Sequence record: NC_135729.1
Reading direction: 5' to 3' (one strand)
DNA from: a phage
DNA: 64,000 bases
Shown here: in pieces, positions 3,470 through 18,745 of the stretch
Position numbering within the stretch: position 1 is the first letter of the stretch
Layout of the letters: each line of letters starts with the position of its first letter
Notes under the pieces: model-generated
The model's database searches: none
What the model was told of the DNA's origin: nothing
The model's input: only the letters and a program-made list of their open reading frames with translations
Made by a program: the position numbers and the translations under genes

Positions 3470-4447
3470 TTATTTGTTAGATTCTGCACGTGCACGAGCA
3501 AGTGCTTTTGCAACGTTTTCAGCAAGAATTTCTTCTGCGGATTTTGCAATATCATCCACAACAGGTTCGCCATCATTACCATGTTCAGTGGTGGCAAACT
3601 CTTCTTTAGTTTTATGCACCTCTGCTTCCAGCTCTTCAATTTTTGCTTGAGCTTTCTCCAGCATAGCTACGATAGGTTCGTTAGCTTTTTCCAGCATGAA
3701 GTCAACCAGTGTTGCGTGATCTTCTTCACCAACAAAGCTTAAAGCTTGAGCCTTAGTCAGCATTTTAGCTTTTTCAACTTCAACCTGGGCCTTGATGATT
3801 TCTTCAGCTTTACTCTGGGTTGCTTTCAGCTCTTCTACTTGCTTCAGCAGATCCAGATACTCTTTAGTTTTGGTTACGTCCACCGGATTCTCCTCGGTAT
3901 TTGCGGATTTTGCAACATCATCCACCTCGGTAGTTTTATCCACCTCAGCAGGTTCCTGTACCGCCTTGATCAGGTTCCCTTCTTTATCGAAGAGATCAGC
4001 GGTTACTTGTTCAAAAATCTGTTGTGTTTTTAACAGACTGTACTGATCTACCACACTAAGCTGCTTGCCTTCTTTTGCAGCCTTATGAATGGTCACGTTA
4101 TCACAACGCTCTTCCAGCCATGCAATACAAGACTCTGCGTCAGCTTGCGCCCATTCCCAATCAGGATGCTCTTTAGCCCAAGCCTCCTCTTCAATCTCAA
4201 AACCAAGCATGTGTGCAAGTGCTTTAGCATCATCATACCACATATCGAAGAAACGACGCAGGTATTCTTCAAAACTAAGCTCCACAGTAACTTGGCGAAG
4301 TGCCTTAACAATATCGTCTGTTAACTGCTCAGGCTTAAGATCACTCTTCATCAAAAGAGATACAGGTCTGTTGTTAGCGCTATAGCCTTGCGCCTTGTGG
4401 CACAGGGCAATCCCCTTCTCTTTAATAGTAATCGTTTTTTCAGACAT
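3470..4447 (-). CDS. putative scaffolding protein
   Basis: 325 aa, strongly acidic, Glu/Lys/Ala-rich predicted coiled coil, between portal and capsid genes. Confidence 0.5.
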   Translation of the reverse strand: MSEKTITIKEKGIALCHKAQGYSANNRPVSLLMKSDLKPEQLTDDIVKALRQVTVELSFEEYLRRFFDMWYDDAKALAHMLGFEIEEEAWAKEHPDWEWAQADAESCIAWLEERCDNVTIHKAAKEGKQLSVVDQYSLLKTQQIFEQVTADLFDKEGNLIKAVQEPAEVDKTTEVDDVAKSANTEENPVDVTKTKEYLDLLKQVEELKATQSKAEEIIKAQVEVEKAKMLTKAQALSFVGEEDHATLVDFMLEKANEPIVAMLEKAQAKIEELEAEVHKTKEEFATTEHGNDGEPVVDDIAKSAEEILAENVAKALARARAESNK

Positions 4448-9243: not shown

Positions 9244-9320
9244 TGGTCTCCACGGAGTGATTCGAACACTCGACCTCCTGATCCCAAATCAGGCGCTCTA
9301 CCAAGCTGAGCTACGCGGAG
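9244..9320 (-). tRNA. tRNA-Pro (anticodon UGG)
   Basis: Cloverleaf read by eye on minus strand; anticodon loop UUUGGGA; T-loop TTCGAAT; C1:G72 pair; CCA encoded. Confidence 0.8.
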
Positions 9321-9331
9321 TATCTACTATT

Positions 9332-9406
9332 TGGTGGCCCTGGGTGGAATTGAACCACCGTCTGGCGATTATGAGTCGCTTGCTTGAACCTTCCAGCTAC
9401 AGGGCC
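9332..9406 (-). tRNA. tRNA-Met (anticodon CAU; could be Ile2/lysidine type)
   Basis: Acceptor GGCCCTG/CAGGGCC; anticodon loop CTCATAA; T-arm GGTGG-TTCAATT-CCACC; CCA encoded. Confidence 0.7.
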
Positions 9407-9407
9407 A

Positions 9408-9483
9408 TGGTGCTGATGGCAGGACTTGAACCCGCAACCTATTGATTACAAATCAATTGCACTACCAATTGTGCTACATCAGC
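9408..9483 (-). tRNA. tRNA-Thr (anticodon UGU)
   Basis: Acceptor GCTGATG/CATCAGC; D-arm GCAC-AATTGGTA-GTGC; anticodon loop TTTGTAA; CCA encoded. Confidence 0.8.
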
Positions 9484-9488
9484 AAAAA

Positions 9489-9587
9489 GGTGCTAGGCGG
9501 TGGAATCGAACCACCTATGTATTCAACGACTACCTCGTCTATTTTCAGGATTAAAAATCCTCGCCCTTGCCAAAGGGCTTACCTAGC
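9489..9587 (-). tRNA. atypical tRNA-like element (99 nt; candidate anticodon UUU)
   Basis: Canonical acceptor, D-arm, anticodon-like hairpin and T-arm (GGTGG-TTCGATT-CCACC), but about 29 nt separate anticodon stem and T-stem; ends in CC not CCA. Confidence 0.35.
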
Positions 9588-9685
9588 TCAATATGTTGAC
9601 CATGTTGCTAGTCGGCGATGACGACTGTAACATTTGATAATCCGGTTCTGCTTCCGGCTTTCGCTTAATTGCAAGGTCAACAATG

Positions 9686-9776
9686 TGGCGGAGAGTAATG
9701 GAATCGAACCATCATCGAGTCATCCTCAACGGGACGGTTTTCAAGACCGCTTGAGCACCATTGCTCCCTACCCTCC
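9686..9776 (-). tRNA. tRNA-Ser (anticodon UGA), type II
   Basis: Acceptor GGAGGGT/ACTCTCC; anticodon loop CTTGAAA; long variable arm; 91 nt; CCA encoded. Confidence 0.7.
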
Positions 9777-9891
9777 TTTATAAATTATACTGATAATGAC
9801 ACTGATTTTCGAGCAGTTAGTGACTAGTATAAACGACGATAAATATCAATGCCATTATCTGTATTATTTATGCATCTAAAAAATATAAATT

Positions 9892-9978
9892 TGGTGGGGA
9901 GTGGTGGAGTCGAACCACCCGAGTCGCAATGACAATAGATTTACAGTCTACACCGCTACCTCTACGGGATAACTCCCC
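9892..9978 (-). tRNA. tRNA-Tyr (anticodon GUA), type II
   Basis: Acceptor GGGGAGT/ACTCCCC; anticodon loop CTGTAAA; T-arm GGTGG-TTCGACT-CCACC; 87 nt; CCA encoded. Confidence 0.75.
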
Positions 9979-9982
9979 AATT

Positions 9983-10057
9983 TGGCACCCCGTACTGGAC
10001 TCGAACCAGTGTCAACGGCTTAGAAGGCCGCTGCTTTATCCACTAAGCTAACAGGGC
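9983..10057 (-). tRNA. tRNA-Arg (anticodon UCU)
   Basis: D-arm GCTT-AGTGGATA-AAGC; anticodon loop CTTCTAA; T-arm ACTGG-TTCGAGT-CCAGT; CCA encoded. Confidence 0.75.
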
Positions 10058-11923: not shown

Positions 11924-12039
11924 AGCTGCCTCCTCTTCAAGTTATAGAAAAACTCACTGTATCACTTTGTAACGAGCTTTTCTATCAAACTGGTGCGATT
12001 GCATTACCTGGTATAGTTCATATAGCTGTGGAGCGATTT

Positions 12040-12290
12040 AGGGGCCTTCTTGTCAGTTTCCACACATAAACTTCATCCAAGCTCGCGCGGGAGACTCTCA
12101 ACCGACTCCTTACGGCGCTGGCAAGCTTTCGTCGGTGGTCCACATCAGTGCTCGGCCTTTGGCCTGCGCTATCGCTTCGCTCCCACACATGTTAACAGAC
12201 CTGCATGTATGCACTTCTGTTATTGTGTGCACCAAGGAGGCCCGGCATCTCGCCCCTCGTAGGCGAGTGCCAATGAAGGGCCGACACTAC
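12040..12290. other. GC-rich structured island (candidate ncRNA or DNA structural element)
   Basis: About 250 bp much more GC-rich than flanks; many local hairpins; distal segments GGGGCCTTCTTG and CAAGGAGGCCC are complementary; track ORF 12050-12262 has no RBS. Confidence 0.3.
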
Positions 12291-12426
12291 CTATAGTAAG
12301 TAATAATTTTAAAACATGGTACTTAGGATCTAGTATATTCTACATAAGTTAAGTATATGTACTTAGTACCATAAGTACTAGATCTTTTATTTTTTATTAT
12401 TTAGTTATTTTAGTTATATTCTTTAT

Positions 12427-12509
12427 GTGTCCGTATCACGGACAGTTAGTGTCCGTATTACGGGCAGATGTGTCCGCGTGACGGACAGTAGTGTCCGTAT
12501 CACGGGCAG
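12427..12509. repeat. four tandem 19-bp iterons with internal dyad (GTGTCCGTATCACGGACAG-like), about 21-bp spacing
   Basis: Units start at 12427, 12449, 12470, 12491; each holds the inverted repeat TGTCCGT..ACGGACA. Confidence 0.7.
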
Positions 12510-12583
12510 TTACTGACCTCTGTTCCAGAGCGAACATAAAACATACGAATCCTTATAGTACAGATATTTAAGTTTTTACTGGT

Positions 12584-12981: not shown

Positions 12982-13536
12982 TTACTCCCCGCTGTCAATA
13001 GCAAGACTCATTGCAATACGGTATGCCTCTTCTAATGGTAAGAGTCTCCCCCACACATCCCAACCGACATCAAACTGCCTGCCAAACAACTGCTGTGTGG
13101 TTCCGTGAGCATGACCGAACAGTTGGACTGATCCGTGAGGCTTTCTGTTCCACTTTGCAAACTGGTAATGGCTCATACAGATCAAATTCTTGTTGTGGCG
13201 AAGCTCGTAATAATCTACAACCTCATGACCGAACTCTTTCATAATTCTGACAGTCGTCCTTGTGTCATGGTTACCACGAACAAGAATAATATGTCCGTTC
13301 AACATATTTAGAACATCTGGGAGCAATTTGTTGATATTCTTATCATTAGTGCACGCAATATCTCCCAAGTGAAACACAGTGTCTGCAGGTGACACAACAG
13401 AGTTCCACTCGGCGATGATTCCCGCATTCATACTGTCAAGATTGTGATCATACTGAGATCTGTGTTTTTGACATGAATCAAACTCCATGACCCGCTGGTG
13501 GAGAAAGTGTGTGTCGCTTGTTACAAAGTATTTCAT
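12982..13536 (-). CDS. calcineurin-like metallophosphoesterase
   Basis: Motifs SDTHF, GDIACT, GNHD, HAHG; start set at ATG 13536 with GAGGAA. Confidence 0.6.
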   Translation of the reverse strand: MKYFVTSDTHFLHQRVMEFDSCQKHRSQYDHNLDSMNAGIIAEWNSVVSPADTVFHLGDIACTNDKNINKLLPDVLNMLNGHIILVRGNHDTRTTVRIMKEFGHEVVDYYELRHNKNLICMSHYQFAKWNRKPHGSVQLFGHAHGTTQQLFGRQFDVGWDVWGRLLPLEEAYRIAMSLAIDSGE

Positions 13537-13543
13537 ACATTCC

Positions 13544-13953
13544 TCATTTAAGTTTAATGCAGTTTTTAAGCTGGCGTTCCATACGATCCACAACCTTGTC
13601 TGGAACATCATGAATGCTTTTATTACCGTGGCGGTTTTCAACCACGATCACGGTATAACTATACCCGTGACTGATTGCCATGTCAACATATTCCTGCACA
13701 TGTTTTTCTTTTGTAAACGTATTACTTACCACGATACGGTCGTATCCCGTACGCATCATATCTTCTACGTTATCTTTGCACCATTTTGCTGCGAGTGTTA
13801 CTTTACTTGCATCCCAGTTGTAATTGCCGTCATCGTCATACCAGAACATGTCGTTCTCAAAATGTGGATACAGACCTTCTAAAGATAGCGCATTTGCCAG
13901 TGTTGATTTGCCAGACCCTGGCAGACCACGCACGATATATAGCATTTTAGACA
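13544..13953 (-). CDS. P-loop kinase (polynucleotide 5'-kinase-like)
   Basis: Walker A GLPGSGKST eight residues from N-terminus, as in the T4 Pnk kinase domain; start at ATG 13953 with GGAGG. Confidence 0.5.
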
Positions 13954-13982
13954 TAGCAACCCTCCGTTTTAATTTTAATGAT

Positions 13983-14011
13983 AGTATACCTAACTGTTTT
14001 GTTAATTTCAA
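13983..14011 (-). promoter_or_regulatory. sigma70-like promoter for the kinase/phosphoesterase operon
   Basis: TTGAAA - 17 nt - TATACT on minus strand. Confidence 0.5.
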
Positions 14012-14014
14012 GTG

Positions 14015-14045
14015 TTGACACTAGGTTATTTGTGTGGCATGATAG
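14015..14045 (+). promoter_or_regulatory. sigma70-like promoter heading the plus-strand block
   Basis: GTTGACA - 18 nt - ATGATA; the -35 context is shared by other plus-strand promoters. Confidence 0.45.
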
Positions 14046-14072
14046 ACTGACAAAATGACAAATGAGGAACGT

Positions 14073-14990
14073 ATGATGAAGTATTTTAATGCAGATGACC
14101 TAGTAGACAAAGGTCTTGTAACCAGTCGGTATTATCCAGATCTTGGATTAAAGATCTATAAATATGCCAGAAAAGTATTCTACAACAATCTGTGGCATTT
14201 GTCTCCGCGTTTACTGGAGTGCCGAGGTATTGTTGTTGGCAATGAGGGGAATGTTGTGGCATGGCCTTTCACAAAAGTATTCAACTTAGGAGAAAACTCC
14301 ACCAACCTACCGGACAGTAAACTTGTTACTGCGGTAGAGAAAAAGAACGGATTCCTCGGTGTGGTATCATCTCATAAAGGTGAACTATTGTTCTCAACAA
14401 CCGGGTCTCTTGATTCTCCATATTGTAACCTTGCAAAGGAAACCATCCAAGAGCAATGTGGTAATTTAGATCTTATCAAGAAGGTTATGGGCAATGAAAA
14501 CATGACATTCATGTTTGAAATTTGTCACCCTTCAGATCCGCATATTGTTCAGGAAGATCATGGCGCATATTTGATAGGTTGCAGATATAATGATTCTGGA
14601 ATAATGCTACCAGAAGCAGCTTTAGATGGGATTGCCAAATACCTTGGTGCAAAACGTCCTCACACTGTGCGTGAAATTCCGTTCAGCTATGCAAAAGAAT
14701 TAGCTGCAGAAACAAGAGGTGAAGGGTATATGATTCGTAAGCCTTACTACCCTTATGATCTGCAGCTGAAGATCAAGTCTCCATACTATCTGGCACGGAA
14801 GGCCGTAATGAGGGGTAAAGCTTGGAAGATTTGGGATGATGATATCTTTAAACGTGTTGACGAAGAGTTTTACGGCATGGTAAACTTCATTCGTAGCAAT
14901 TACACAGAGGATGTGTGGAACTGCCTCCTGGAGCAGGAACGCCGTGAGATACTTGATTACTATTTCCACAACGAGAACTATATGCAATGA
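14073..14990 (+). CDS. RNA ligase (Rnl1/Trl1-type nucleotidyltransferase)
   Basis: Motif I KKNG (KxNG), motif IV EGYMIRK, motif V LKIKS; start at ATG 14073 with GAGGAA. Confidence 0.55.
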   Translation: MMKYFNADDLVDKGLVTSRYYPDLGLKIYKYARKVFYNNLWHLSPRLLECRGIVVGNEGNVVAWPFTKVFNLGENSTNLPDSKLVTAVEKKNGFLGVVSSHKGELLFSTTGSLDSPYCNLAKETIQEQCGNLDLIKKVMGNENMTFMFEICHPSDPHIVQEDHGAYLIGCRYNDSGIMLPEAALDGIAKYLGAKRPHTVREIPFSYAKELAAETRGEGYMIRKPYYPYDLQLKIKSPYYLARKAVMRGKAWKIWDDDIFKRVDEEFYGMVNFIRSNYTEDVWNCLLEQERREILDYYFHNENYMQ

Positions 14991-15337
14991 AGAAGTTGAT
15001 TGTGTGGCTAGATGACTTAAGAGATCCGTCAAATTACGGGCTCCCAGACGCTGTTTGGCTGAAGAATTCCTCCGAGTTTATGGATTTTATTAACGATAAG
15101 GGAAAGCTCTACAGACGCGTTTCTGAGTGGCATATGGACAACGACCTAGGAGAAGTATTCGAAGGATACGATTGCCTATCCATGTTGGAGGAAAAATTTG
15201 TATTCGGTAAGCCTCCCGTGGTTGACAACGTGAAGATTTTCGTACATACTTCTAATCCATCAGCGGCTCGTAAATTCATGCTTGCAGCTGACTCGTTTAA
15301 AAAGTTTGGAATAGAGATTAAACAAAACATCTACTGA
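14987..15337 (+). CDS. hypothetical flavodoxin-fold (CheY-receiver/TIR-like) protein
   Basis: IVWLDD N-terminus, SEWHMDNDLGE and IFVHTSNP segments resemble receiver-domain landmarks; weak. Confidence 0.3.
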   Translation: MKKLIVWLDDLRDPSNYGLPDAVWLKNSSEFMDFINDKGKLYRRVSEWHMDNDLGEVFEGYDCLSMLEEKFVFGKPPVVDNVKIFVHTSNPSAARKFMLAADSFKKFGIEIKQNIY

Positions 15338-15345
15338 GGGCACTT

Positions 15346-16107
15346 ATGCGACGACTGATTATTATCTCCGGTGCTGGTTTGAGCGCTGAATCTGGTATTC
15401 CCACTTTCCGATCTGGTAGTACTGCAATGTGGGAGAATTTCAGCATAGATGAGGTGTGCAACATCCACACCTTCGCCAAGAACTACTATAAGGTGCATGA
15501 CTTTTACAATGCACGTCGTGTAGCTCTGGGCAGTGTTGATCCTAACCTTGCACATCTCCGGATCGCTGAGTGGTATTCCCGCTGGTCTGGTCGTGTGATC
15601 AACCTGACCACCAATGTAGATGATTTGCTGGAGCGTGCTGGTGTAAAACATGAAGATATTTTACATGTCCACGGGTATTTGCCTGAAATCACCTATGAAG
15701 ATACTGAAGGTAATGATGTAATTAAAAATATAGGGTACACGGAGGTAGATACAGGCAAGTATACCTGGGTTAAGCCCAATGTAGTGTTCTTCGGTGAGGT
15801 TGCTCCTAAGTATACAGACATGTATGACCTGTTGACATCTCTTACCAGCAATGATATGGTGATCCTGGTAGGTTGTTCTAACACAGTTATTAATTTTAAC
15901 TGGGAATTGTTTCCTGCTACTTGTAAAGGCACAAAACTGCTGATTGTAAACAAGTATGATTCGCAGAGTGCAGATGGAAGTGGCATTTCACGTAGCGACC
16001 TTTATCAATATGAGGATCGCGGGATCCCTGTATGGTTTAACGGTGCTGTTGACGCTTTCTCTGATAAAGCATTTATTGAAACTGTAGAAAACTTTATGGA
16101 ACTGTAA
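15346..16107 (+). CDS. Sir2-family NAD-dependent protein (zinc-ribbon-less sirtuin)
   Basis: GAGLSAESGIPTFRS NAD-binding motif, TTNVDDLLERAG, HVHG catalytic His; no Cys tetrad. Confidence 0.7.
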   Translation: MRRLIIISGAGLSAESGIPTFRSGSTAMWENFSIDEVCNIHTFAKNYYKVHDFYNARRVALGSVDPNLAHLRIAEWYSRWSGRVINLTTNVDDLLERAGVKHEDILHVHGYLPEITYEDTEGNDVIKNIGYTEVDTGKYTWVKPNVVFFGEVAPKYTDMYDLLTSLTSNDMVILVGCSNTVINFNWELFPATCKGTKLLIVNKYDSQSADGSGISRSDLYQYEDRGIPVWFNGAVDAFSDKAFIETVENFMEL

Positions 16108-16121
16108 GAGGTGACCTTTTA

Positions 16122-16835
16122 ATGCTAAATACTAAACTGATCGACAACCTGGAAAAACTGTCTCAGCCAGAAAACTACCTTTGGTCTGCCAGTTGGGTGG
16201 AAAATTGGAACCGTGTAGCAGCTAAAGTGAAAAAATCATACACACCATTCGAACTCCAGCTCAGTTTTATTGAAGAAGAGTTTAATGAGGTTCTTGAAGA
16301 GTTGGAGAAAGGTGATGGTGGAGATCACCTGCTAAAAGAGGCCTGTGATCTGCACGTTGTTACAAGTTATGCCGCTTATCTTGTCAACGATAACTACGAA
16401 AAGTGGACAAGTCTGTTTGATAATTCGCGAGATATTAAGTTTAAGATTGGGGAGTTCTATGATACACTGATCGCTGCTAAAAACACACCAAAGCAAAAAG
16501 CGTCTGCTTACCGACTAGCGGAGTTATCAACAGCTTTGCTGTTCCAGCTTAGCGGGGATGTGTGTGGGATGATGCGGAAGGTTCTCAAATCTAATGACAG
16601 TAAGTTTGCGCGGATCAACCATCTACGGCATTCACACGGTGCTAGTGCAGATATGCCTGCTGAACAACTCATAGAGTTGGAGATTAAAGATCTTGAGCGA
16701 CGCTTTGATGGTCGCTACGAAGGTTTTGTTGCTAAGGAAGAGTTCTACAACGGTAATAAAGTTATCATATTCCTTGACAGTAAAGGTAAGATCATGAAGC
16801 CTTCGAGCTTCAAGGATGTAACAGAGTATATTTGA
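16122..16835 (+). CDS. putative MazG-like NTP pyrophosphohydrolase domain protein
   Basis: EEEFNEVLEELEKGDGGDHLLKEACD resembles the EExxE...ExxD metal-binding helices; weak. Confidence 0.3.
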   Translation: MLNTKLIDNLEKLSQPENYLWSASWVENWNRVAAKVKKSYTPFELQLSFIEEEFNEVLEELEKGDGGDHLLKEACDLHVVTSYAAYLVNDNYEKWTSLFDNSRDIKFKIGEFYDTLIAAKNTPKQKASAYRLAELSTALLFQLSGDVCGMMRKVLKSNDSKFARINHLRHSHGASADMPAEQLIELEIKDLERRFDGRYEGFVAKEEFYNGNKVIIFLDSKGKIMKPSSFKDVTEYI

Positions 16836-16841
16836 CAACAT

Positions 16842-16868
16842 AGCCGGGTAATCCCGGCTTTACTTATT
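16842..16868 (+). terminator. putative rho-independent terminator
   Basis: AGCCGGG-taat-CCCGGCT stem followed by TTACTTATT. Confidence 0.4.
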
Positions 16869-17206: not shown

Positions 17207-17462
17207 TCTTGCTAAACCTGTAGAAGCCCACCAGTTTGACGGAAGCTCTTCATCAGTATCTGATCTGCAACGGTGGATTGATACAGGTGTGTTTACATCG
17301 TCACCTGTTCGGACCAGAGATCTTCGTCGCATGTGTGAGCTTGTCGAGCCTTTTGGTAACCTTGTCTTGTACCAGGGAGATTGGCTAGTTGACTTTATGG
17401 GAGACTGGTTGGTAATGAGTAAAGAAGAGATGTTTAAAATTTTTAAGGAAGAGGCCGAGTAA
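17193..17462 (+). CDS. hypothetical protein
   Basis: 89-aa ORF; stop overlaps the ligase start. Confidence 0.35.
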   Translation: MPLFNLAKPVEAHQFDGSSSSVSDLQRWIDTGVFTSSPVRTRDLRRMCELVEPFGNLVLYQGDWLVDFMGDWLVMSKEEMFKIFKEEAE

Positions 17463-18745
17463 TGCATCAAATCAAAACAACACTGTACGCACTGAACAAA
17501 GATGGCAGCTACCAACAGTGGAAAGTATTCACTGATGGCGAAAAGGTTATCGTAGAGTTTGGCAAGCTTGACGGTAAATTGCAGTACAAAGAGACGGTAT
17601 GCACACCTAAGAACGTAGGTCGTGCCAATGAGACTACAGCTGAGCAACAGGCCGAGCTTGAGGCTATCAGCAAGTGGGAAAAACAAGTCCGTCTGGGGTA
17701 TGTTGAAAACATGGAAGATTGCGAGCAGGGTGTTGATCTTTTACCCATGCTGGTGCATGACTACCTGAAGCGTGGCAAGGCACTTAAACTACCTTGCTGG
17801 ATCTTGCGTAAGTTAGATGGCCTTCGTCTGCTTGTTGTTTTCCAAAATGGTGAGCCTAAATTTATTTCCCGTGGTAATAAGTCCTACCCTATTCAAGGAA
17901 AGCTTTTAGAGCAACTTCGTTCTTTCCATTCTACCACTGGGATTAAACAACTTGATGGGGAACTATACATTCATGGTCTTCCTTTGCAGAAAATAGTGTC
18001 TCTTGCTAAACGGTGGCGCACACAGGAAGAGATTCAGGCCGAGATCGATAAAGACTATGAGGCAGATAAAAAACGCCGTCATGCCGCAATTAAGTCCGGC
18101 TTATCAACATATAAAAACTTCAACAAGGTAGATATTCCTGTCGATGTTGAGCCTGTTCGTGATGATTTGCGTTACGGTGGGTACTGTAGCTACGATCTGG
18201 AGTATCACATTTTTGATATTCCTAGCGACAAGGTGTGGTGGGATCCCGAAACAGAGTCTGGACGCTGCAAGGATCTTATGGATGCAGAGGATACCGTTAC
18301 CACTCTGATGCTTGACCATATCAAGGTTGTTGACGCAGAGCTTGCGTACACAGTTGATCATTGCGAAGAATCTGTTGGTATATTCATGTCCGAAGGATAT
18401 GAAGGTACCATTATGCGTAACTTCTGTGGTAAATATGAGTACGGTCAGAGAACATCTGAAGCATTGAAATGGAAAAAGTTCAACGACGCAGAGGTGAAAG
18501 TTATTGACGTTGAGAAAGATAAGAATGATGAAGGTGTTCTTATCTGTGTTGACAAGGAAGGTATTGTTGTTAAAATGAAGATGAAAGGTACGCACGAGGA
18601 GCGTAGCTATGACAGAATGCAGGAAATGATCGGCAAGTTTGTCACCTTCAAATATCAAGCAAGGACAGAAGACAACAACTACCAATTCCCTGTCGGTATC
18701 TGCGTCCGAAATGTTAACCCAGACACTTGGGAGGTGCTGGAATAA
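17462..18745 (+). CDS. ATP-dependent DNA ligase
   Basis: Motif I KLDGLR, motif IV EGTIMR, motif V KWKK; 427 aa. Confidence 0.7.
   Translation: MHQIKTTLYALNKDGSYQQWKVFTDGEKVIVEFGKLDGKLQYKETVCTPKNVGRANETTAEQQAELEAISKWEKQVRLGYVENMEDCEQGVDLLPMLVHDYLKRGKALKLPCWILRKLDGLRLLVVFQNGEPKFISRGNKSYPIQGKLLEQLRSFHSTTGIKQLDGELYIHGLPLQKIVSLAKRWRTQEEIQAEIDKDYEADKKRRHAAIKSGLSTYKNFNKVDIPVDVEPVRDDLRYGGYCSYDLEYHIFDIPSDKVWWDPETESGRCKDLMDAEDTVTTLMLDHIKVVDAELAYTVDHCEESVGIFMSEGYEGTIMRNFCGKYEYGQRTSEALKWKKFNDAEVKVIDVEKDKNDEGVLICVDKEGIVVKMKMKGTHEERSYDRMQEMIGKFVTFKYQARTEDNNYQFPVGICVRNVNPDTWEVLE

Follow-up and report, generated by a model that had tools for sequence, protein, structure and literature searches.

The 64,000-nt stretch of phage DNA analysed here (NC_135729.1; hereafter the window) is from a Vequintavirus, an rV5-like Escherichia coli myophage. 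We are concerned with two adjacent genes on its plus strand, one encoding a small protein of the cREC family and the other a canonical sirtuin that has lost its zinc site; both open reading frames (ORFs) are present as described in an initial annotation made from the DNA alone. Homologues of cREC occur in 356 phage records and homologues of the sirtuin in 1,012 (counted across the whole collection), so neither is a chance ORF. The two are the second and third genes of a compact early-type unit of four, Rnl1–cREC–Sir2–MazG-like (Table 1). The ATG of cREC overlaps the stop codon of Rnl1 (ATGA), cREC and Sir2 are separated by 8 nt with a GAGG Shine–Dalgarno sequence overlapping the cREC stop codon, and the MazG-like gene follows Sir2 after 14 nt, with the Shine–Dalgarno sequence GAGGTG. 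A kinase–phosphoesterase pair is transcribed divergently from this unit; its junction is 7 nt, and again a GAGG Shine–Dalgarno sequence overlaps the stop codon of the first gene, the kinase. The segment 14000–17000 is 97.5% identical with phage PDX and 94–96% with Murica, JES2013 and about 118 further records. The analysis confirms what the initial annotation had observed, a zinc-less sirtuin beside a receiver-like protein among RNA-repair genes, and partly supports the interpretation placed on it. About 18–25 unannotated GenBank records (MG0656xx) titled 'Campylobacter phage' are 95–99.6% identical to the Vequintavirus locus; mislabelling is the probable explanation, or else these are E. coli phages recovered in work on Campylobacter.

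Table 1. Genes and other features around the cREC and sirtuin genes (window coordinates)
Feature	Position	Strand	Remarks
Phage tRNA gene cluster, 7 ARAGORN calls	9244..10057	-	3–5 kb from the repair genes; Rfam confirms 5
Calcineurin-like metallophosphoesterase (MPE)	12982..13536	-	184 aa if started as in phage Murica; longest ORF extends to 13641
Small P-loop kinase, 136 aa	13544..13954	-	Pfam AAA_33 2.4e-10; phrog_2071 3e-58; phrog_505 polynucleotide kinase 8e-10
Divergent promoter-like matches for the kinase gene	14011-13978	-	consensus scan, pattern match only
Sigma-70-like promoter match, TTGACA-17-CATGAT with extended TG	14015..14043	+	12 nt 5' of the Rnl1 start; consensus scan, pattern match only
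T4 RnlA/Rnl1-family RNA ligase, 311 aa	14055..14990	+	Pfam RNA_lig_T4_1 9.2e-15, above cut-off; phrog_562 4e-66
cREC, 116 aa	14987..15337	+	Pfam PF20274 cREC_REC 1.5e-14; phrog_1479 5e-35
Zinc-less canonical sirtuin, 253 aa	15346..16107	+	Pfam SIR2 7.2e-28; phrog_2162 1e-108
MazG-like nucleotide pyrophosphohydrolase, 237 aa	16122..16835	+	phrog_671 4.8e-21; Murica and JES2013 records say pyrophosphohydrolase
GC-rich hairpin, 7 bp, 6 G-C, terminator-like	16842..16859	+	directly 3' of the MazG-like stop codon; scan
ATP-dependent DNA ligase	17462..18745	+	Pfam DNA_ligase_A_M and OB_2; context gene, not assigned to the same pathway

The sirtuin scores 98.2 bits against the Pfam SIR2 family (PF02146; gathering cut-off 24), and its assignment to the Sir2 family in the initial annotation is thereby upheld. 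In an alignment of 32 sequences (homologues 46–93% identical), G9-A10-G11, S16-G17, F21-R22, Y54, R57, N90, D92 and H109-G110 are invariant, and the TQN(I/V)D motif has T89 where Gln is canonical. Y54 and R57 belong to a FYNARR motif, and the pair is kept in about 109 of the 150 cluster representatives surveyed below. The Tyr/Arg pair of class III sirtuins (SIRT5, CobB) binds anionic acyl groups. Structure prediction was carried out for both proteins. The AlphaFold2 model of the sirtuin, computed from the 32-sequence alignment, is confident (predicted local distance difference test score, or pLDDT, 89.6); the top solved structures returned by Foldseek are E. coli CobB (E 1e-17, template modelling (TM) score 0.73–0.77), Sir2Af1 and SIRT5, all of class III, and the sequence search matches CobB at 3e-21. 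The phage sirtuin is derived from class III. Its best NCBIfam matches are all named 'NAD-dependent protein deacylase', yet it lies below every deacylase cut-off: the best subfamily, NF001753, gives 122.5 bits against a cut-off of 243, and the CobB equivalog, NF040867, gives 103.9 bits against 320, which does not indicate CobB orthology. With an intact nicotinamide adenine dinucleotide (NAD+) pocket and the catalytic His, the protein looks catalytically competent, judging by its residues. In ten longer relatives inspected for domain fusions, only a tandem SIR2 and WG repeats came up, which is uninformative.

The absence of a CxxC...CxxC zinc module, pointed out in the initial annotation, holds throughout the close relatives; no CxxC occurs anywhere in the 94 close homologues that could be scored (94/94). 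In alignment with zinc-bearing relatives (40–50% identity), Y117 stands where those have Cys1 and N123 where they have Cys2, and the second CxxC knuckle has been deleted. Even so, the AlphaFold2 model retains, at pLDDT 94–96, the three-strand β-module in which the zinc is normally bound. We surveyed 150 representatives of 50%-identity clusters, in which the clusters of the nearest zinc-bearing relatives are almost all metagenomic sequences; 70 retain 2×CxxC and about 50 are without the site. Loss of the site co-varies with the exchange of Gln for Thr or Ser in TQN(I/V)D (60/7 versus 8/39, odds ratio 42, Fisher p 2e-15, not corrected for phylogeny), a pattern best read as a clade signature since the test ignores phylogeny. 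Residue 89 (window 15610–15612) and residue 175 (Val versus Ile) are the only positions that separate the zinc-less from the zinc-bearing group. The sirtuin is remodelled at the place where canonical sirtuins hold their protein substrates, by loss or deletion of the zinc knuckles and by Q89 to T. The degeneration is meaningful because the zinc module is required for the deacetylase activity of canonical sirtuins (PMC12700824, 2025); it is not diagnostic of one particular activity.

The protein encoded upstream lies above the gathering threshold of cREC (PF20274, 'cyclic-phosphate processing Receiver domain') and has a receiver (CheY-like) fold. The initial annotation had suggested a receiver/TIR-like Rossmannoid for it; the receiver-type fold stands (cREC_REC in Table 1). 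Invariant residues are D51, D53, H87-T88-S89-N90-P91 and K96; D9 and D10 come close to invariance. In the model, β1 and β3 carry acidic residues at their C-terminal ends, an arrangement known from receiver domains; from these strand-end positions, D9/D10, D51 and T88 would correspond to D12/D13, D57 and T87 of CheY. With hhalign, the cREC profile could not be aligned significantly to E. coli CheY. The geometry of Asp51-x-Asp53 in the model would suit a phospho-aspartyl phosphoesterase mechanism, in agreement with the published prediction for the family. The domain has been described as receiver-derived, never accompanied by histidine kinases, a predicted processor of cyclic phosphates and found in RNA-repair or NAD/ADP-ribose contexts (Iyer et al. 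2021, PMC7824862); it is experimentally uncharacterised according to Iyer et al. 2022 (PMC9503650). Here its neighbours are an RNA ligase, a kinase and a phosphoesterase, with no histidine kinase. We regard it as a predicted cyclic-phosphate phosphoesterase whose role would be enzymatic and not signalling. Two phages carry cREC without a nearby sirtuin: in Proteus phage Privateer (L096:4001–4339) the gene is located 2.5 kb downstream of an RtcB-like RNA ligase, and in the T4-like Morganella phage vB_Mm5 (L097:3998–4342) it lies in the middle of clustered tRNA genes, more than 20 in number, and genes for Nudix and Acb1 are no more than 4 kb away. On its own, cREC tracks RNA biology; what constantly surrounds it is RNA ligation and the biology of tRNA.

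The initial annotation had also placed the two genes next to RNA-repair genes in a presumed counter-defence cluster, and the Rnl1, kinase and phosphoesterase neighbours bear this out. The metallophosphoesterase matches Pfam Metallophos_2 (3.9e-6) and Metallophos (4.6e-6), phosphoesterase phrog_547 (3.8e-52) and PDB entry 1xm7 (2.4e-10), the Murica annotation agrees, and the gene is syntenic with the cluster in 13 loci; it is a candidate 2',3'-cyclic phosphodiesterase/3'-phosphatase for healing RNA ends. The P-loop kinase is a candidate polynucleotide 5'-kinase. Rnl1 contains the sequence EKKNG, which fits nucleotidyltransferase motif I (KxxG), and matches NCBIfam TIGR02308 at 1e-9, below cut-off. 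The identity of the MazG-like protein comes from PHROGs and record annotation, with no match in Pfam, NCBIfam or PDB; its gene, the fourth of the unit, is syntenic in 13 loci. PDB sequence searches with Rnl1 and the kinase likewise gave no matches. In phage Murica, a terminator is annotated at the position equivalent to the hairpin behind the MazG-like gene.

The phage tRNAs encoded a few kilobases away are possible repair substrates, or a possible backup for cleaved host tRNAs. An Rfam scan of the window found tRNAs only. Two of the ARAGORN calls on the minus strand are absent from Rfam at the gathering threshold, a 99-nt tRNA-like gene with a 4-base anticodon (9489–9587, 'tRNA-OTHER Asp|Gly' in the Murica annotation) and a 91-nt tRNA-Ser (9686–9776), and phage JES2013 is without the middle part of the cluster. 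Between two minus-strand genes, an ORF-poor stretch of some 650 nt (~11924–12583), which is unannotated in Murica too and has no Rfam family match, could be a regulatory region or an undescribed RNA. The terminase large subunit of JES2013 (L095, 7792–10222) is annotated as two coding sequences split by an endonuclease VII gene, and at L023 an inserted HNH endonuclease (phrog_953, 3646–4287) separates the phosphoesterase gene from that of Rnl1; both observations point to homing endonucleases moving through these genomes.

The conservation of this arrangement was examined at 76 viral loci of the sirtuin clade (90% down to 30% identity), scanning 6 kb on either side for the neighbours seen in the window. 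Rnl1, kinase, phosphoesterase, MazG or DNA ligase is present at 11–14 of the 76, and cREC at 8; a cREC profile hidden Markov model finds the same 8 loci. The 14 loci with DNA ligase are the set with repair genes, and one further distant match (L048) is without other cluster genes. No other syntenic neighbour accompanies the cluster as constantly as DNA ligase, which stays with the cREC cluster where the sirtuin is elsewhere. In loci of the ~145-kb Klebsiella/Salmonella phage type the order is MPE..Rnl1–cREC–kinase–Sir2–DNA ligase..MazG, all on one strand; the repair cluster is thus conserved but rearranged, and synteny survives the rearrangement. Three loci (L044, L046 and L053) have the order MPE–Rnl1–kinase–x–x–x–Sir2 with no cREC detected. 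Between their kinase and sirtuin genes is a protein of 161–162 residues (phrog_652, motif LGRxLTNLY...F.S.EGFWYY; L044:5302–5790, L046:5079–5564, L053:5090–5575), which may be a non-homologous replacement of cREC. Its motifs had raised the suspicion of a NADAR/YbiA protein; with no Pfam or PDB sequence match, that identity was dropped.

Elsewhere the sirtuin keeps other company. In T5 (L078), the sirtuin is T5.102 (57% identical), and two genes downstream of it T5.105 encodes a HAD_SAK_2 phosphatase ('Swiss Army Knife RNA repair', 4e-20). This combination corresponds to the third type of neighbourhood in Iyer et al. (PMC9503650). The adjacent genes T5.106 and T5.107 (L078:6651–7481), directly after the HAD_SAK_2 gene, each encode two DUF7415 copies (E 3e-33 and 3e-30). 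A calcineurin-like phosphoesterase adjoins the sirtuin at L077. Two distant clade members have a gene for nicotinamide phosphoribosyltransferase (NAMPT) immediately upstream (L062:4057–5493) and a nucleoside 2-deoxyribosyltransferase-like gene immediately downstream (L065:6713–7198), respectively, which suggests that the sirtuin is coupled to NAD+/nucleotide salvage. The sampled jumbo-phage loci contain no match to the cREC profile, the neighbours of their sirtuins being gyrB-like, Nuc_deoxyri_tr2 or unassigned, and the KVP40-type loci show no informative sirtuin neighbours. The constant company of the sirtuin is NAD/nucleotide and phosphate-ester processing. The reverse search covered 15 cREC loci. 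In phAPEC8/phi92-like contigs, the sirtuin is about 32.6 kb from the cREC cluster of the same contig, among small hypothetical genes (L035 versus L089, IMGVR_UViG_2974717474_000001; also L034/L090). The initial annotation had described the two genes as a coupled pair; the close operonic spacing stands, and the pair as a conserved unit does not. The cREC–Sir2 adjacency is an arrangement specific to Vequintavirus; the sirtuin, and not cREC, is the separable member of the cluster, and cREC stays with ligase, kinase and phosphoesterase.

The explanation that we favour, ahead of a CobB-like deacylase and with a probability of about 40%, is that the cluster heals and seals RNA cut by host nucleases and that the sirtuin has a role coupled to this repair. 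Observed are the identity of the genes, the folds and conserved catalytic-type residues of their products, the layout of the operon, its synteny and a recurrent, though varied, linkage to RNA-end enzymes; from these we infer each catalytic step and the substrate. Host anticodon nucleases or other metal-independent RNases would cut tRNA or other RNA to give 2',3'-cyclic phosphate and 5'-OH ends. The P-loop kinase would phosphorylate the 5'-OH end, cREC and/or the metallophosphoesterase would resolve the cyclic phosphate, and Rnl1 would seal the break. The sirtuin would spend NAD+ to take away a remaining 2'- (or terminal) phosphate in the form of an ADP-ribose derivative, much like Tpt1/KptA, and the MazG-like enzyme, cREC and the phosphoesterase would clear nucleotide by-products. 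The substrate RNA is probably tRNA. The gene set of the cluster is identical with that of a published neighbourhood (PMC9503650, section 3.7.3), all five partners listed there being present. The operon layout, the synteny that outlasts rearrangement, the RNA-related surroundings of cREC on its own, and a sirtuin that looks competent but is remodelled at its protein-substrate site also speak for this explanation, and independent lineages place the sirtuin beside other phosphate-end enzymes, HAD_SAK_2 in T5 and the calcineurin-like phosphoesterase at L077. By analogy with class III enzymes, the invariant Tyr54/Arg57 pair would be compatible with a phosphate-bearing substrate. The narrower proposal, that the zinc-less sirtuin is a nucleic-acid-directed, non-homologous analogue of Tpt1/KptA that uses NAD+ to ADP-ribosylate, and so remove, a 2'- or terminal phosphate of nuclease-cut RNA while cREC resolves cyclic-phosphate species, we regard as tentative, and doubtful as a whole.

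Several points weigh against the RNA-repair explanation. We know of no sirtuin with demonstrated activity towards a phosphate of RNA. Kinase, phosphoesterase and Rnl1 make up a complete healing and sealing set of the T4 type (T4 Pnkp/Rnl1), and because such a set leaves no 2'-phosphate, a Tpt1-like step is not obviously needed. The nearest relatives of the sirtuin, by sequence and by structure, are protein deacylases, and residues of the acyl-lysine type are retained. At about 60 of the 76 loci, there is no Rnl1, kinase or cREC within 6 kb; the T5-like majority has neither RNA ligase nor cREC, and Salmonella phages have 289 sirtuin records to 14 each for Rnl1 and cREC. In ~150-kb contigs of the phAPEC8/phi92 type, the set cREC–MPE–Rnl1–kinase–DNA ligase–MazG is complete without the sirtuin. 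The published jumbo-phage context of 2H, Nudix, cREC and PIN genes was not found in the jumbo loci sampled, Serratia phage BF not being among them. Searches of the literature turned up no experimental work on cREC or on phage sirtuins of this clade.

The main rival explanation takes the sirtuin for an ordinary, if divergent, CobB/SIRT5-like protein lysine deacylase. It would reset the acyl-lysine marks that enzymes of host or phage carry, among them adenylate-forming enzymes such as Acs, or the phage's own RNA and DNA ligases at their catalytic lysines; its place beside cREC would be lineage-specific gene order without functional pairing, and cREC would work independently alongside ligase, kinase and phosphoesterase. 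The class III matches by sequence and structure and the deacylase names in NCBIfam fit this, as do the invariant catalytic His, FGE loop and class III Tyr/Arg pair, the T5-like carriers without Rnl1 or cREC, and the phAPEC8/phi92-like cluster without sirtuin; the NAMPT gene next to the sirtuin at L062 fits any activity that releases nicotinamide. A deacetylase role has also been proposed for the zinc-less sirtuin of the KVP40 type (PMC5107563). Against the deacylase explanation, the clade as a whole has lost the zinc module reported to be necessary for canonical deacetylase activity (PMC12700824), one knuckle being deleted; the TQN motif is without its canonical Gln; and the score of the protein stays far short of all curated deacylase cut-offs (104 bits where the CobB equivalog demands 320). 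Nor would a generic deacylase role lead one to expect that the sirtuin is linked, repeatedly and in varied ways, to phosphatases acting on RNA ends (HAD_SAK_2, calcineurin-like, cREC; PMC9503650). We consider such a deacylase possible, though on balance unlikely. A deacylase of another kind would remove an acyl group linked to RNA, for example the N-acetyl group placed on aminoacyl-tRNA by GNAT-type toxins, and so act as a tRNA 'repair' enzyme beside the ligase pathway. The retained deacylase-type active site and the tRNA/RNA-repair gene context are circumstantial evidence for it; the idea is our own, with no precedent and no specific sequence feature behind it, and the sirtuin is separable from the cluster in T5-like and phAPEC8/phi92-like phages. 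We think it highly improbable.

The initial annotation had read the missing zinc module as the mark of an ADP-ribosyltransferase or NADase, by which host proteins or NAD+ pools could be altered. Spelled out, this reading would serve takeover or counter-defence and make the receiver-like protein a regulator or partner of the sirtuin. The module is indeed degenerate, and the gene lies in an early region of counter-defence type. All sirtuins cleave NAD+, and some have ADP-ribosyltransferase side activity. The premise itself fails. Sirtuins of the SirTM type, the one class of protein ADP-ribosyltransferase sirtuins that has been characterised, keep the zinc-coordinating domain, replace the catalytic His by Gln and have an operonic Macro-domain partner (PMC4518038); in the phage sirtuin the His (H109) is invariant, and Pfam and PHROGs reveal no Macro domain among the neighbours. 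The NADase-type SIR2_2 proteins (ThsA, FAM118) are without the entire β-sheet module (PMC12700824); here the β-module is retained in the model, the only Pfam match is SIR2, the nearest structures are class III deacylases and the PADLOC models of defence Sir2 proteins (ThsA, DSR1/2, Sir2-HerA, SPARSA; SIR2_2) gave no match to the sirtuin at E ≤ 0.01. A 2026 paper on NARP3 mentions only the host 'anti-phage Sir2-HerA' and is not relevant to the phage protein (PMC13464706). Draining NAD+ would harm a phage whose relatives carry NAD+ salvage genes beside the sirtuin, and cREC, with its catalytic-type invariant residues and its occurrence without a sirtuin, does not look like a dedicated regulator. 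We therefore hold an NADase or ADP-ribosyltransferase role to be improbable.

Were the RNA-repair explanation true, the enzyme would be the first sirtuin of the canonical family with an RNA substrate and would represent a new NAD+-dependent branch of phage counter-defence, an idea already in print as a prediction (Iyer et al. 2022). A clade present in more than 1,000 phage genomes, including T5 and rV5-like therapeutic candidates, would then take sirtuin chemistry beyond acyl-lysine to the phosphate ends of RNA. The phage repair of tRNAs cut by host defence systems would gain a step that depends on NAD+, which bears on escape from anticodon-nuclease, PARIS-type and retron-type immunity. V5-type genomes, with their compact four-gene operon in a tractable E. 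coli phage, offer a direct check of the sirtuin and cREC hypotheses.

Among known systems, CobB and SIRT5 (lysine deacetylase/desuccinylase) share with the phage sirtuin the GAG motif, the catalytic His, the FGE loop and the Tyr/Arg pair of FYxxRR. It differs from them by the absence of zinc ligands, the deleted second knuckle and the changes of TQN to TTN and VYP to VIN, and it scores less than half of every NCBIfam deacylase cut-off. The Sir2/CobB protein of KVP40-type Vibrio phages also lacks the zinc ligands; Skliros et al. (2016, Front Microbiol 7:1807, PMC5107563) named T5 and SPC35 as further carriers and suggested a role as an Acs-activating deacetylase. This KVP40-like sirtuin belongs to the same clade as that of the window (L061, L063; 42–45% identity), whereas its context is unrelated to RNA ligase. 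With Tpt1/KptA, the chemistry proposed as shared is attack of a phosphate oxygen on C1'' of NAD+, freeing nicotinamide and an ADP-ribose cyclic phosphate, and the pathway logic proposed as shared is the combination of cyclic phosphodiesterase, kinase, ligase and NAD+-dependent removal of the 2'-phosphate (PMC9503650; PMC11417386). The fold of Tpt1/KptA is like that of ADP-ribosyltransferases and unrelated to the Rossmann sirtuin, so that the likeness is one of function, with no homology, and the sirtuin activity is purely hypothetical. In common with T4 Pnkp and Rnl1 and with bacterial Pnkp (kinase–metallophosphoesterase–ligase), the window encodes a P-loop 5'-kinase, a phosphoesterase and an Rnl1-family ligase beside phage tRNA genes. 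Its phosphatase is calcineurin-like and not of the HAD type as in T4, all activities are on separate polypeptides, and cREC, the sirtuin and the MazG-like protein have no T4 counterpart. Unlike CheY-like receivers, cREC is without histidine kinase or output domain and has the invariant signature DxD...HTSNP...K.

The closest precedent is the sirtuin-centred, NAD+-using phage RNA-repair neighbourhood of type 2, with Escherichia phage V5 and Proteus phage Mydo as prototypes (Iyer, Burroughs, Anantharaman & Aravind 2022, Viruses 14:1977, PMC9503650). Its authors proposed that the sirtuin removes RNA 2'-phosphates in a KptA/Tpt1-like way and that cREC and other esterases open the cyclic phosphate or process the ADP-ribose cyclic phosphate (ADPr>P) product. 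V5 and the phage of the window belong to the same genus, and the T4-like RNA ligase, cREC, nucleotide kinase, sirtuin, MazG-family pyrophosphatase and calcineurin-like phosphoesterase, six genes in all, are found here within 12982–16835. The locus is an instance of the type 2 neighbourhood with no substantive difference, and the system is already known as a computational prediction. To that prediction the present analysis adds the boundaries of the operon, the anatomy of the zinc site, the co-variation of Q89T with its loss, the class III affinity with the Tyr/Arg pair, the negative comparisons with SirTM and defence NADases, and the demonstration that of sirtuin and cREC it is the sirtuin that is separable from the cluster.

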